From an uncultured virus (IMG/VR IMGVR_UViG_3300001687_000011) (Duplodnaviria > Heunggongvirae > Uroviricota > Caudoviricetes), in IMG/VR virus record IMGVR_UViG_3300001687_000011: 20,000 nucleotides of DNA; one strand, given 5' to 3'. The translations under genes and the position numbers were made by a program. Every line of letters starts with the position of its first letter. Position 1 is the first letter of the stretch. The notes under the pieces are model-generated. The model was not told where the DNA came from and made no database searches. It worked only from the letters and a program-made list of their open reading frames with translations. Shown here piece by piece: positions 5,821-17,602 of the stretch.

Positions 5821-5835
5821 AAATATCTCCTTATG

Positions 5836-5888
5836 AAAAAGTGGTGATAAACCCCAGGGAAAAAGGAGGAAACCCCAGGGCTATCACC
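5836..5888 (-). promoter_or_regulatory. hairpin (terminator/attenuator-like) whose loop carries an anti-SD sequence
   Basis: minus strand GGTGATAG-CCCTGGGG-TTTCCTCCTTTTT-CCCTGGGGT-TTATCACC followed by ACTTTTT; internal direct repeat AAACCCCAGGG x2 on plus strand. Confidence 0.6.
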
Positions 5889-5898
5889 TATTAAAAAC

Positions 5899-6762
5899 TT
5901 AACCAGAAGGTATTGAAGGTCTATATACAGGTAATGTAGAATTCGGATACACATATAATTTTACTATATCAGTATCTACATTATCTGAATTAAACTCAAA
6001 ACTGAAAGGACTTCCCAACTGTTGGGTATCACCATAGAACATGACAGTCCTGTAAGAATTTTTACCGTAGCCTCCTAAACCCCCACTCAAAAATTTATTT
6101 CCAAACTTTTCATTTATTGACTGCTGAAGTTTGTCAGAATACTCCTTTAGATTATCTACAAGATGTTTATAATCATGTTTGTACATAACCACAATATAAT
6201 TTTTAACTATAAGATCCAATATACACCAGGTATATTCTTTATCTCTATTCCTGAGATATTGTAATTCATCATCAAATATAAGATTAACATGTTTCAATGA
6301 GAGACGATGCCAATCCCCATCAAAAATCCGTCTCTTTGCTATATATAAGATCCCCTCCTTATAGTGACTTTCTATAACACTGTTTATGAAGTCATATTTA
6401 TCTGGGACATATACATCACACAATATTTTACTATAATCGAAGAATAGCTCATAAGCTACTTCTTCAGGTGTAACATTGTAATGAGATGGTTCAAAAGCTG
6501 TTGGTTGAACATATAAGACGGACAAGGAATTTTTTTTGTTGTCTATTAAGAATTGAGATAGTTTACCTGCTAAAGCTTTTAGGTAATCTGTCATATTAAA
6601 AGGATATACGGGCAATAGTTGTACAGGGATATAAATCTTTGGTTTACAGTGCCCAAAATTGAAAGCAATTAAAGATCCATATTTTTTCATACCTTCTGAA
6701 CTTATCCTTTGGATATTGGAACGATCAACTAAAACCATACTATCTGTCTTATTAGACATCAC
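5899..6762 (-). CDS. hypothetical protein (287 aa)
   Basis: long ORF with GGGGGT SD; no family recognised. Confidence 0.8.
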   Translation of the reverse strand: MMSNKTDSMVLVDRSNIQRISSEGMKKYGSLIAFNFGHCKPKIYIPVQLLPVYPFNMTDYLKALAGKLSQFLIDNKKNSLSVLYVQPTAFEPSHYNVTPEEVAYELFFDYSKILCDVYVPDKYDFINSVIESHYKEGILYIAKRRIFDGDWHRLSLKHVNLIFDDELQYLRNRDKEYTWCILDLIVKNYIVVMYKHDYKHLVDNLKEYSDKLQQSINEKFGNKFLSGGLGGYGKNSYRTVMFYGDTQQLGSPFSFEFNSDNVDTDIVKLYVYPNSTLPVYRPSIPSG

Positions 6763-6769
6763 ATACCCC

Positions 6770-7072
6770 CTATGTTAATGTAACAAGTGGTTCTTCCTTT
6801 GGTTCATCTTCATCATCCAAATCAGTCACATCCATAGCTCTTCCACATCTACTACAAACAAAGATCTCCATAGGATAAGCTTTTACATGCGGTTCAGGTC
6901 TTTGTAAAAGTGGTAACTTCTTAAAAATACATGATCTAAGAAATATTACATTACCACACCTGGGACACACATGATCCTTAAGTTCACTCAAATCAACACT
7001 TATTGTTTGATGTTGTTTTTGTTTTTCCTGAATCTGCTTCATTCGTTCTTTAACTAAGTCGTCATTATTCAT
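6770..7072 (-). CDS. zinc-ribbon protein
   Basis: CPRCG...CSRCG pairs; AGGAAGGT SD. Confidence 0.8.
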   Translation of the reverse strand: MNNDDLVKERMKQIQEKQKQHQTISVDLSELKDHVCPRCGNVIFLRSCIFKKLPLLQRPEPHVKAYPMEIFVCSRCGRAMDVTDLDDEDEPKEEPLVTLT

Positions 7073-7101
7073 ACTTTTACCTTCCTTTTTTAACCAATTA
7101 A

Positions 7102-7360
7102 TATGTGATGGACTGGCTAACCCCCACCAATCTACCCACTAATAAGCCACAAGAAAAAGTTAATATAGGCCCTCAAACTTTTTCCATACAACTTATTTGA
7201 CCATCTTCTCGTTTATCCTATTGACCACAATTACTGGGAGCAGTAATTGTCCCTTCAACAAGAGGTAGTCCTACTCATTCAAGAGGTACGTTACGGAAGT
7301 CTCAATGGTCGAACTTTCCTGGATATTTATTTTCATCCCGTTCTATATCCACATCACATA
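7102..7360 (-). ncRNA. candidate structured non-coding RNA (259 nt), family unrecognised
   Basis: ORF-free gap closed by a 9-bp terminal stem TATGTGATG/CATCACATA with at least five nested helices (see findings); several helices extend by G:U pairs only on the minus strand. Confidence 0.7.
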
Positions 7361-7367
7361 AATTTAA

Positions 7368-7658
7368 TTATTCTTCACCATCTAAAGCATCAATAGCAGC
7401 AACTATCGGAGCAACTTCATCAGCTACACCATATAGCCATGCTTTTACTTTATCAAAACCTGCTTTAACCTTATTTTCATAATAGGTCTCTATAGCATTA
7501 ACAATAGCATCATCCTTCCTGGTAAAAGTAGTAACATTTGCCAGACCAGCCAAGGATTTAATTACCTGGCCTACTGCCAATAAGATTTCTTCTACAATAC
7601 CAATCAAGAGACCAACATTTTTACAAAAATAAGCTAAAATCGCTTTAACCTTACTCAT
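7368..7658 (-). CDS. small amphipathic/membrane-associated protein, possibly holin-like
   Basis: GGAGGT SD; hydrophobic N-terminal half followed by TxTxKDD. Confidence 0.7.
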   Translation of the reverse strand: MSKVKAILAYFCKNVGLLIGIVEEILLAVGQVIKSLAGLANVTTFTRKDDAIVNAIETYYENKVKAGFDKVKAWLYGVADEVAPIVAAIDALDGEE

Positions 7659-7678
7659 CTTTTAACCTCCAAAAAATA

Positions 7679-8590
7679 TTACCAATCGTAATTTACTAAA
7701 CCATAGACTGTCTCGGAATTATCTTCACGATCATGTCTTACACCTACAGCCACTCCAAAAGCTGAAGTACCATTACTCCAAGTAACTCCATGACTGATCG
7801 ATGTAGTCTTTGAGTCCGTAAATAATGAACTCTTATGATCCAGACCATATTTATTCTCAAGGACAATCCTGGATTGAGCTAATAGCTCATTATTCGCATT
7901 ATAAAACTGTACATAAGTGTTTTCAGTCCAGTAGGTTCCATGAGGCATTGTAACCAAAACCTCAACATAACTTATAGGACTACATTCGGAAAATCCCATA
8001 ACAGGTTTTATCAGAGTCACTACCTTACTGTTGTTCGTTTTGGCATATGCAAAACCAGGAGAATCAGCTTTTACTGCAATAATAAATCTATAGAACTCTC
8101 CCTTTGCCAACTTAACAATAGTCTTATTTGGGGATACAGCAACACCAGTTACAATACTATTGGTATCCATCAGATCTACCGTACCACTGACTAAAGGTGC
8201 CCCTATAGATTCTTGGTAAGTACCACCACTATTTAAGGTATTCACTGACTGATTATAGGCATTTGATTGAAAACCTTCATAGTCTTCCATCAGTTCATTG
8301 TTCACAGTGGTTATAGTATCACCTTCATTTACTACATTGATGGTATTATTTATAACATTTGTATTATTGATGGTATCACCTTGATTAGGATTTCCATCAG
8401 GGCCAGGAGGAGGATTACCATTGTTACCACCCTGACCTGGGCCAGTATAACCAGAACTATGAGGATTATGTGGATTCTCCCACCCATAGGCATTTCCATT
8501 ATCGGGATCTGCATATACTTTTGTACCCATTCCTACACTTACAATCATCAACATGAACATAATCATTACTACTACTGCAATCTTTTTCAT
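7679..8590 (-). CDS. secreted/surface protein with signal peptide, low-complexity G/N/P region and C-terminal amphipathic beta strands
   Basis: MKK + hydrophobic core + VYA cleavage site; GPGQGGNNGNPPPGP; ends ...AFGVAVGVRH...TVYGLVNYDW; AAGGAG SD. Confidence 0.8.
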   Translation of the reverse strand: MKKIAVVVMIMFMLMIVSVGMGTKVYADPDNGNAYGWENPHNPHSSGYTGPGQGGNNGNPPPGPDGNPNQGDTINNTNVINNTINVVNEGDTITTVNNELMEDYEGFQSNAYNQSVNTLNSGGTYQESIGAPLVSGTVDLMDTNSIVTGVAVSPNKTIVKLAKGEFYRFIIAVKADSPGFAYAKTNNSKVVTLIKPVMGFSECSPISYVEVLVTMPHGTYWTENTYVQFYNANNELLAQSRIVLENKYGLDHKSSLFTDSKTTSISHGVTWSNGTSAFGVAVGVRHDREDNSETVYGLVNYDW

Positions 8591-8698
8591 ACCAGTCTCT
8601 CCTTTTATTTTAAGGATTAATATTAATAGAAATAACTATAAGCATACCCAACCAGACTAAAAATAGAATAAGAAATTTCTTATCCCCTCCCCTCTGTA

Positions 8699-9855: not shown

Positions 9856-9883
9856 CTTGTACTAAAATCCTCTATTATGGTTC

Positions 9884-9923
9884 AAAGTGGAGGTGTTGTC
9901 CATTTGGGCAACACCCCCATTTT
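9884..9923. terminator. intrinsic terminator, probably bidirectional
   Basis: AAAGTGGAGGTGTTGTCC-ATTT-GGGCAACACCCCCATTTT inverted repeat just downstream of the 9937 stop. Confidence 0.75.
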
Positions 9924-9936
9924 AGACAACACCCTA

Positions 9937-10705: not shown

Positions 10706-10888
10706 TTTATAATATATTAGCATACTAACAGTAAACCAACTCCCAACCACAAGGATTATAGTACATATTTTAAAGAATAAATCATTAGCCAGTTTCATAT
10801 TGATTTTATATGGTTTACAATTACTTAATCCTACAGCAGCTAAGAAACTACCAACTAAATATAATACCCACCACATTAAATAACCCAT
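10688..10888 (-). CDS. small two-TM membrane protein
   Basis: two hydrophobic stretches, basic C-terminus; AGGAG upstream. Confidence 0.65.
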   Translation of the reverse strand: MGYLMWWVLYLVGSFLAAVGLSNCKPYKINMKLANDLFFKICTIILVVGSWFTVSMLIYYKLKKKW

Positions 10889-10910
10889 CTCTCATCTCTC
10901 CTACAAGATT

Positions 10911-10944
10911 TGGTAGGGGATCTTAATTGATCCCCTACCATTTT
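10911..10944. terminator. intrinsic terminator-like hairpin
   Basis: perfect 12-bp stem TGGTAGGGGATC-TTAATT-GATCCCCTACCA; T-run follows on the plus strand only. Confidence 0.7.
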
Positions 10945-10973
10945 ATAAATGAAAAGAAATATATATATAAAGC

Positions 10974-11570
10974 TTAATCCCTCAGGTTGATGGGATCAGC
11001 TTCACCAGTCTCAAAGGCTTTATTGGTATCAGCATCAAGAACAATTATAATCTTGTCAGGATCATACTTGTCTTCCTTGGGAAAACCCATAAGGTGCATT
11101 GCAATCCAACCTGTGGGCATCTGTCTAAGGTAGTCCTTATACACACGGGCTTTCTCAATCAACATTTGTTGATCAGCAGCAAACGTGGCCCTTTGAGACT
11201 CTATGACCGTCATTAATTTATTATACATGGTCGAATCAAAATTGGGGTTGTGTTCTTTTAACCAAGTAAACATGGCCTGAACACCCTCTTGACCATAACG
11301 TTTTTCACAGACCGAATCAAAAACTTTCTTTAGATCATTGGTATACATTTCGGGCACCTGGGCAGTCTCCTTAATGGTCTTGAACATATTGGAACGTGAA
11401 TTTTTGTTCTGCTTCTGCTGTGCTTCTAAAGTATTCTCATACTGAACACATTGGTTATTGATACCCATCAAGTACCCCCCAACACCCAGGAGTGTAACCA
11501 AACCAAATATAAAAACAATGGCTATAATGATCAATACAATCTTCATACTTCCATGATTATTACCGAACAT
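10974..11570 (-). CDS. LemA-like membrane-anchored helical protein
   Basis: ATG at 11570 with AGGAGGT SD; single N-terminal TM, then helical region with NPNF...MYNKLMTVIESQRATF...Y...PTGWIA...GF, resembling the LemA pattern. Confidence 0.7.
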   Translation of the reverse strand: MFGNNHGSMKIVLIIIAIVFIFGLVTLLGVGGYLMGINNQCVQYENTLEAQQKQNKNSRSNMFKTIKETAQVPEMYTNDLKKVFDSVCEKRYGQEGVQAMFTWLKEHNPNFDSTMYNKLMTVIESQRATFAADQQMLIEKARVYKDYLRQMPTGWIAMHLMGFPKEDKYDPDKIIIVLDADTNKAFETGEADPINLRD

Positions 11571-17188: not shown

Positions 17189-17198
17189 AATTCTCCCC

Positions 17199-17235
17199 TT
17201 ACTTATTTATCGTCATCTACTACAAAAAACTTCAG
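17199..17235 (-). promoter_or_regulatory. putative promoter, copy 3 of conserved motif
   Basis: minus strand CTGAAG-N15-GACGATAA-ATAAGTAA. Confidence 0.75.
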
Positions 17236-17239
17236 TGTA

Positions 17240-17594
17240 TGGGTAGTGCAGAATCGAACATGCATGAAGCACTCATGAGCTAAGTCGAGAGGTAAAGATC
17301 CTTATGTGTTACTTGATTCGACAAAACTGGTATACCAGAACAATATACTACACGTTTTTACTATCTCTGCCACCTATGGAGTGCTTTTTTCATTAATTCC
17401 AGCGTCAGCCTTACCCTACTTACTTAAGATTTTTCAGGCATAGGTCTTACACTCTCCCTGGTTCTGTGGACTTTACTTTATGCTCTCTATATCTCTAATA
17501 TAATCAAGTAACAAGAATAATTACTTCGGCCCCCTATTGTGCCCAGGTCTGGGTTGCAACTCTCTTAGTTGCCAGACCAACCACCAGGCTACCC
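17240..17594 (-). ncRNA. candidate 355-nt RNA with tRNA-like ends (tmRNA-like architecture, non-canonical)
   Basis: 5' GGGTAG pairs with 3' CTACCC-A; the 3' end is preceded by a T-arm TGCA(T)G-TTCGATT-CTGCA; perfect 12-bp long-range helix 17502-17513/17307-17318; further hairpins. Confidence 0.65.
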
Positions 17595-17602
17595 TTAAAG
17601 AT

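Follow-up and report, generated by a model that had tools for sequence, protein, structure and literature searches.

A predicted five-way-junction structure closed by a long-range stem between two small genes of an uncultivated tailed phage

Genomic context of the element

The window analysed in this study, a stretch of 20,000 nt from an uncultured virus, looks like part of a large tailed-phage genome. Its GC content is about 35% (0.347), and all of its plausible genes lie on the minus strand. The products recognised in the window include an SbcCD-like nuclease, a DNA-repair exonuclease, a Nudix hydrolase and an RNA ligase, together with a protein of the UDG superfamily and two conserved structural proteins. 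Among the matches listed, a structural protein of 380 aa shares about 32-41% identity with counterparts in Xanthomonas and Burkholderia jumbo phages and also in 150-160-kb phages of Serratia, Salmonella and Escherichia, and relatives of this protein occur in 40 IMG/VR contigs.

The gap under study (7073-7367, 295 nt) is the second-longest non-coding gap of the window and separates an upstream gene of 96 aa (7368-7658, minus strand) from a downstream gene of 100 aa (6770-7072, minus strand). The gap contains no ORF of at least 50 aa, and each of its three sense frames is interrupted by stop codons. The upstream ORF is terminated by UAA, and a separate AUG, preceded by a Shine-Dalgarno sequence, opens the downstream one. 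The downstream product carries a two-CxxC zinc ribbon, and the upstream product, one of a small family of proteins 66-103 aa long, has neither a Pfam nor a PHROG family. P0004, a protein of 3536 aa, contains 10 stretches that match residues 55-91 of the 96-aa protein, and parts of the latter also match proteins of 1093 aa and 655 aa; judged from these matches, the 96-aa protein may be derived from, or be a mimic of, a repeat unit of giant phage proteins.

No terminator-like site was identified in 6700-7800, and sigma-70-like sites were no more frequent than expected by chance (2 found vs 4.3 expected). A motif, TG[AC]CGATA(0-2 nt)ATAAGTA[AG]G, recurs in three intergenic regions, all of them minus-strand (17206, 10675 and 5171), but the focal gap lacks it. 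TG[AC]CGATA..ATAAGTA[AG] is probably the putative promoter consensus of this phage itself, and because it is absent from the focal gap, the gap would be internal to a single transcription unit. The element described below is thus probably carried inside a transcript running from about 10675 to a point before 5171.

Architecture of the predicted fold

Folding of the sense strand with RNAfold gave a minimum free energy (MFE) structure of -75.1 kcal/mol with 81 pairs, 9 of them G:U. On the basis of the MFE structure and of the pair probabilities (P), the whole closed element (7102-7360, minus strand) is predicted to form a five-way junction, composed of a closing stem and four arms. The closing stem P1 has 9 bp, all Watson-Crick (7360-7352/7110-7102, minus strand), with a mean pair probability of 0.97, and it keeps a P of at least 0.95 when 701 nt of context are folded. 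Its 5' strand, UAUGUGAUG (7352-7360, minus strand), starts 8 nt after the UAA of the upstream gene, and its 3' strand, CAUCACAUA (7102-7110, minus strand), ends 29 nt before the downstream AUG.

The four predicted arms are likewise on the minus strand. Hairpin A (UGGAUAU/AUAUCCA, 7351-7345/7326-7320) has 7 bp and an 18-nt loop, lies flush with the 5' strand of P1 and has a P of 0.71; hairpin D (GAUUGGU/GCCAGUC, 7132-7126/7117-7111), with 7 bp including 2 G:U pairs and the loop GGGGGUUA, lies flush with the 3' strand of P1 and reaches a P of 0.98. Arm B (7199-7310) is formed by GACCAU/AUGGUC (7310-7305/7204-7199, P 0.85), which closes a multibranch interior, and within it a perfect 10-bp hairpin with a CUCC loop (7250-7241/7236-7227) has a P of 0.99; in DNA, 7227-7250 is a perfect palindrome of 24 bp. 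Arm C (7141-7197) combines an 8-bp helix (7197-7190/7148-7141) with a 10-bp helix (7185-7176/7161-7152) and a 14-nt loop, contains 3 G:U pairs and has a P of 0.94-0.95. High pair probabilities were obtained for 5 of the 6 main helices. The Shine-Dalgarno-like sequence of the downstream gene, AAGGAAGG at 7087-7080, is unpaired in the MFE structure. At 0.398, the GC content of the element exceeds that of the window (0.347) and that of most other gaps (0.25-0.33).

All helices named in the first-pass annotation, which was made from the letters without database searches, were found on the minus strand where that annotation had placed them. The closing stem, the flush hairpins, the GACCAU/AUGGUC helix and the 3' arm that it described are all part of the MFE structure, while the long arm that it drew inside GACCAU/AUGGUC, UCUUGUUGA/UCAAUAGGA, belongs only to an alternative fold, which lies 0.7 kcal/mol higher (-74.4 vs -75.1 kcal/mol); the probability of the arm in the ensemble is about 0.37. 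Two near-isoenergetic foldings are available to the interior of arm B, and this ambiguity arises because two direct copies of UACCUCUUG (7288-7280 and 7267-7259, within 7259-7288, minus strand) supply alternative pairings inside the arm.

Complementarity between loops had also been taken as a hint of pseudoknots or kissing loops, a suggestion that did not survive comparison with chance: 3 inter-loop complementary runs of at least 5 nt were found, and 2000 loop shuffles average 2.97, with 1074 of them doing as well. One of the proposed partners, UUCCGU, is already paired in the MFE structure, and CUCC is a tetraloop. A third exact copy of UAUGUGAUG is located about 340 nt downstream of the element, at 6765-6757 (minus strand), where it overlaps the start codon of a 287-aa gene. 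Pairing of this copy with 7110-7102 as a switch would cost +8.1 kcal/mol and has an ensemble probability of about zero, and the idea of a pairing switch was therefore dropped.

Comparison with chance

The arrangement of stems was compared with 3000 dinucleotide-preserving shuffles of the 295-nt gap, with perfect stems of at least 9 bp being counted. At least three such stems were found in 3 of the 3000 shuffles, a stem closing the two ends in 12, at least two local hairpins in 1, and the closing stem together with two local hairpins in none. Natural controls were provided by ORF-free gaps of 200-450 nt from the window and 40 phage loci, which number 32 when ORFs of at least 60 aa are considered or 81 when ORFs of at least 75 aa are considered. 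The focal gap is alone among the 32 (or 81) in having an end-closing stem, and is one of 2 (or 3) that have two such hairpins. Perfect 9-bp stems spanning at most 260 nt are common as such, with 26 in the 20-kb window.

Thermodynamic support is modest. In the MFE comparison with shuffles that the first-pass annotation had put forward as a check, the sense strand has a z-score of only -2.27, a stability that 4 of 200 shuffles equal or exceed, and the antisense strand does better at -3.73. Once composition is corrected for by regression, the sense strand ranks only 31st of 988 windows (register 7101-7360; 19th of 988 on the plus strand). After this correction, coding windows such as 10861-11120 outscore the focal element. 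When the control gaps were run with 20 shuffles per fold, a z of -2 or lower was obtained for 21 of 64 strand-folds (32 gaps, among which are four copies of one sequence from different contigs), and the focal gap ranks 35th on the sense strand (z -1.42 in this noisy 20-shuffle run) and 4th on the antisense strand.

G:U pairs make up 9 of 81 pairs in the sense fold vs 2 of 67 in the antisense fold; helices C and D need G:U pairs, and the sense fold mirrored onto the other strand loses 9 pairs. Such pairs had been read in the first-pass annotation as a sign of selection on RNA, an argument that is not decisive, given the general G/U-richness of the sense strand across the genome and the better z-score of the antisense strand. 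Because of that better antisense score, folding energy does not discriminate between RNA and DNA, or between the strands, and the main stems, being perfect Watson-Crick helices, fit DNA palindromes or young sequence as well as they fit RNA. The arrangement of perfect stems is non-random, and since shuffles and natural gaps rarely match the closed, nested arrangement whereas stability scores are modest, it is this arrangement, rather than exceptional stability, that constitutes the distinctive trait of the element.

Other regions of the window are also structured. The strongest composition-corrected folding signal of the window is found at 10861-11120 on both strands (z -4.5 on the minus strand), a region that spans a 12-bp terminator-like hairpin (10911-10940) and, within the first part of a virion structural protein gene, a perfect long-range stem of 11 bp (11007/11200). 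The longest non-coding gap (17189-17602, minus strand; 414 nt, GC 0.40) immediately precedes small ORFs and the RNA ligase gene. In this gap, a 5' GGGUAG can pair with a 3' CUACCC that comes right after a T-loop-like GUUCGAUUC hairpin, so that its ends look like a tRNA-like acceptor/T-arm mimic, and further in, a perfect long-range stem of 12 bp (17307/17513) encloses an inner domain. ARAGORN called a permuted tmRNA there at the 80% threshold only, the fold z-score is +0.53, and neither an Rfam hit nor a match in phages or in the 40 loci was obtained. A further hairpin, GGUGAUA...UAUCACC, lies behind a gene at 5821-5898 (minus strand). It contains two direct copies of CCCUGGGGUUU, a U-rich tract comes after it, and it probably serves as a terminator that has a repeat inside.

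Relationship to described RNA families and mobile elements

The claim that the element belongs to no known family was borne out by Rfam 15 (4227 covariance models), which gave no match at the gathering threshold in the whole window and, at E <= 10 in 6950-7500, only 7 sub-threshold hits that amount to noise (E 1.6-5.7; 9.7-16.2 bits vs thresholds of 35.6-98). For one of these, DUF2815, the alignment falls on the ribosome-binding site and AUG. ARAGORN detected no tRNA or tmRNA in the window, nor in 7041-7400 when its thresholds were relaxed to 80%. None of the Rfam hits at E <= 10 was to a small self-cleaving ribozyme (hammerhead, twister, pistol, hatchet, HDV-like). An expression platform of the riboswitch type was considered and rejected on two observations, the lack of terminator-like sites in 6700-7800 and the unpaired state of AAGGAAGG at 7087-7080 in the MFE structure.

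An intron splitting one gene was likewise rejected: both flanking ORFs are complete, the homologues of the 96-aa protein are free-standing proteins of 66-103 aa with the same end point, and P0015, a variant of the 100-aa protein, shares its Met start. Intron_gpI gave no hit at E <= 10, the sensitivity of Rfam for divergent phage introns being limited, and a domain of P4-P6 size between the candidate strands was not seen by inspection. No reverse transcriptase was found by PADLOC in the neighbouring proteins of 69, 96, 100, 203, 230, 275, 287 and 303 aa, nor by Pfam or PHROGs in the same neighbours apart from the 69-aa one. Pfam domains of RuvC/HNH nucleases or DEDD recombinases (IscB/IsrB, IS110) were not detected in the downstream proteins of 100, 287 and 203 aa, and an Atlas search with the 287-aa protein was uninformative (pTM 0.19). 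HEARO omega-RNA gave no Rfam hit, either in the whole window at the gathering threshold or in 6950-7500 at E <= 10.

Tandem repeats or iterons were not found. In a search for MITE-like copies, no second copy was present in the window, and the termini pattern had 0 exact matches in genome_contigs and viral_contigs, a search by exact match in which diverged copies would be missed.

Search for relatives

Blastn of 6500-8000 against phages returned nothing, an exact 27-mer had no match in viral_contigs and an exact 28-mer none in metagenome_contigs. Neither blastn nor nhmmer found the gap in the 40 IMG/VR loci. These loci were collected through the 380-aa structural protein and share just two structural genes with the window; because of this, synteny did not lead to a comparable gap. 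A covariance model of 174 nt (R1), of low power because a single sequence was entered twice, retrieved only itself in the window and the 40 loci and had hits in 0 of 18 related IMG/VR phage records.

The flanking genes are orphans or near-orphans in the databases searched. The flanking proteins of 303, 287 and 100 aa had no match in viral_contigs, and in a database of 5.8 billion proteins those of 303 and 100 aa matched themselves only. The 96-aa protein family gave 11 phmmer hits, with P0003 the best at 87% identity, and P0015 is a cluster-mate of the 100-aa protein in clusters at 90% identity; P0003 and P0015 lie on ENA contigs of 618 nt and 872 nt, respectively. Tblastn of the 96-aa and 100-aa proteins against phages returned nothing, and tblastn of P0003, P0005-P0011 and P0014 (the 96-aa family) and of P0002 and P0015 (the 100-aa protein and its variant) against the loci produced only noise (E 0.35-0.92). 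An alignment of the 96-aa family (A1) was too diverse to be used as a query, a further one (A2) found nothing in metagenome, viral and genome contigs, and P0005 had no match in viral_contigs. Homologous DNA was thus not reached because the flanking genes are near-orphans. A literature search yielded only general papers on ncRNA discovery.

Discussion

In this study, a real, well-delimited and non-random predicted structure outside described families, modelled from a single sequence, is reported between two co-oriented genes of a tailed phage. We tentatively propose, at somewhat less than an even chance, that the element is an independently folding, cis-acting RNA domain within a polycistronic phage mRNA. 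In this model, the 9-bp closing helix would draw both ends of the spacer together and the four arms would stack on it to give the five-way junction, and the Shine-Dalgarno sequence of the downstream gene would stay free. With the usual sizes of ribosome footprints, the element would lie just outside the footprints of the terminating and the initiating ribosome, and since it starts 8 nt past the stop codon and ends 29 nt before the start codon, the fold could persist while ribosomes terminate and initiate on either side. Its most likely role would be that of a compact intercistronic insulator, stability element or processing element, which would block exonucleolytic decay or offer an entry site for an endonuclease, and the fates of the two halves of the operon would thereby be separated. 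Transcription of the element, its folding in vivo, selection on the fold and a role in cis are what we infer.

Intercistronic structures are known from other phage polycistronic mRNAs, such as the RNase III sites of T7 and the promoter-stem-loop cassettes of T4 type, which are single hairpins of about 30-60 nt. The focal element resembles them in lying between co-oriented phage genes, in being non-coding, in having stems just past a stop codon and in leaving the next ribosome-binding site accessible. It differs from them in being a 259-nt five-way junction with a long-range closing stem, and no nuclease site or promoter was identified in it.

A possible, if rather unlikely, explanation is that the gap is a neutral spacer left behind where small genes decayed or were exchanged, within a hyperplastic region populated by orphan genes, and in which independent post-gene hairpins sit side by side and the pairing of the ends is a coincidence. 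Single stable hairpins do occur just past the stop codons at 5821-5898, 8591-8698, 9856-9936 and 10889-10973, orphan or near-orphan neighbours are expected in a region of fast turnover, 9-bp perfect stems with a span of at most 260 nt are frequent (26 in 20 kb), the thermodynamic rank is unexceptional, and the element was picked from a scan of very many windows, in which rare chance configurations surface. Against this reading speak the shuffles (12 of 3000 for the end-closing stem, 0 of 3000 when the two local hairpins are required as well) and the other natural gaps, 0 of 31 (or 80) of which have such a stem, and the GC content of the element is raised rather than lowered. It is also conceivable, though unlikely, that the element works at the level of DNA, with palindromes serving as sites for dimeric phage proteins or as recombination or replication signals, or with the 9-bp stem strands being the terminal repeats of a small mobile insert. 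The perfect palindromes ACAATTACTG-CTCC-CAGTAATTGT (24 bp) and GAAAAAGTT-N14-AACTTTTTC would suit such a role, as would the strand symmetry of the major stems, all of which are perfect Watson-Crick, and the stronger z-score of the antisense strand. On the other hand, copies of the palindrome half-site are at chance level (5 matches with at most 1 mismatch in the window, a number that 14 of 200 shuffles equal or exceed), no iterons or tandem repeats were found, and helices C and D require G:U pairs, which DNA or the other strand cannot form. As to a mobile insert, MITEs are miniature inverted-repeat elements that occur in multiple copies sharing their termini. The 9-bp perfect inverted repeats exactly at the ends of the element, bounding a non-coding stretch of about 260 bp between genes, are MITE-like, but the interior is not one long palindrome, inspection of the flanks by eye revealed no clear target-site duplication, the termini pattern had 0 exact matches in genome_contigs and viral_contigs, and R1 found no other copy in the window, the 40 loci and the 18 related phage records.

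The first-pass annotation had favoured a new phage ncRNA, ribozyme or complex cis-regulator, and we regard a new trans-acting ncRNA, ribozyme or ligand-sensing regulator held together by tertiary loop-loop contacts as improbable. Its attraction lies in the compact multi-helix junction with a P1-like closing stem, in a size and GC excess typical of complex RNAs and in the lack of a match to any described family; that lack extends to ribozyme and riboswitch models even at E <= 10, and neither an expression platform (a terminator is lacking and the ribosome-binding site is accessible), nor loop complementarity above chance, nor a recognised adjacent reverse transcriptase, nuclease or recombinase speaks for such an RNA. 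The lysine riboswitch offers a comparison in shape, its aptamer being a five-way junction closed by a P1 stem. The element shares with it the P1 helix closing a multi-way junction and the position in the 5' region of a gene, but it has no Rfam riboswitch match and no terminator, and its ribosome-binding site is not sequestered. A related proposal, that the element is a new lineage-restricted phage ncRNA of about 260 nt, a five-way junction that would be excised from the operon transcript at the closing stem and have a role of its own, seems to us improbable to the same degree. By analogy, possible roles for such an excised RNA would be those of a ribozyme, a protein-sequestering scaffold or a self-assembling RNA like phi29 pRNA or ROOL. 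Phage-encoded structured ncRNAs include the pRNA of phi29 as well as GOLLD and ROOL (for the latter two, see PMC12286853). The focal element is similar to all three in being phage-borne, non-coding and multi-helix with paired ends. None of these families matched it in Rfam, GOLLD and ROOL are far larger, its loops, whose complementarity is at chance level, give no sign of self-assembly, and packaging or tRNA genes are not adjacent to it.

The reading that we tentatively favour remains that of a cis-acting intercistronic domain, and the present value of the element is that of a well-delimited candidate (7102-7360, minus strand) predicted from a single sequence. Should the fold be under selection, the small set of complex RNAs known from phages would gain a new family. 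Its source would be an uncultivated, large myovirus-like lineage in which the neighbouring genes are also without known function, and it would show concretely how a large RNA domain between cistrons can be accommodated between one gene's stop codon and the ribosome-binding site of the next.
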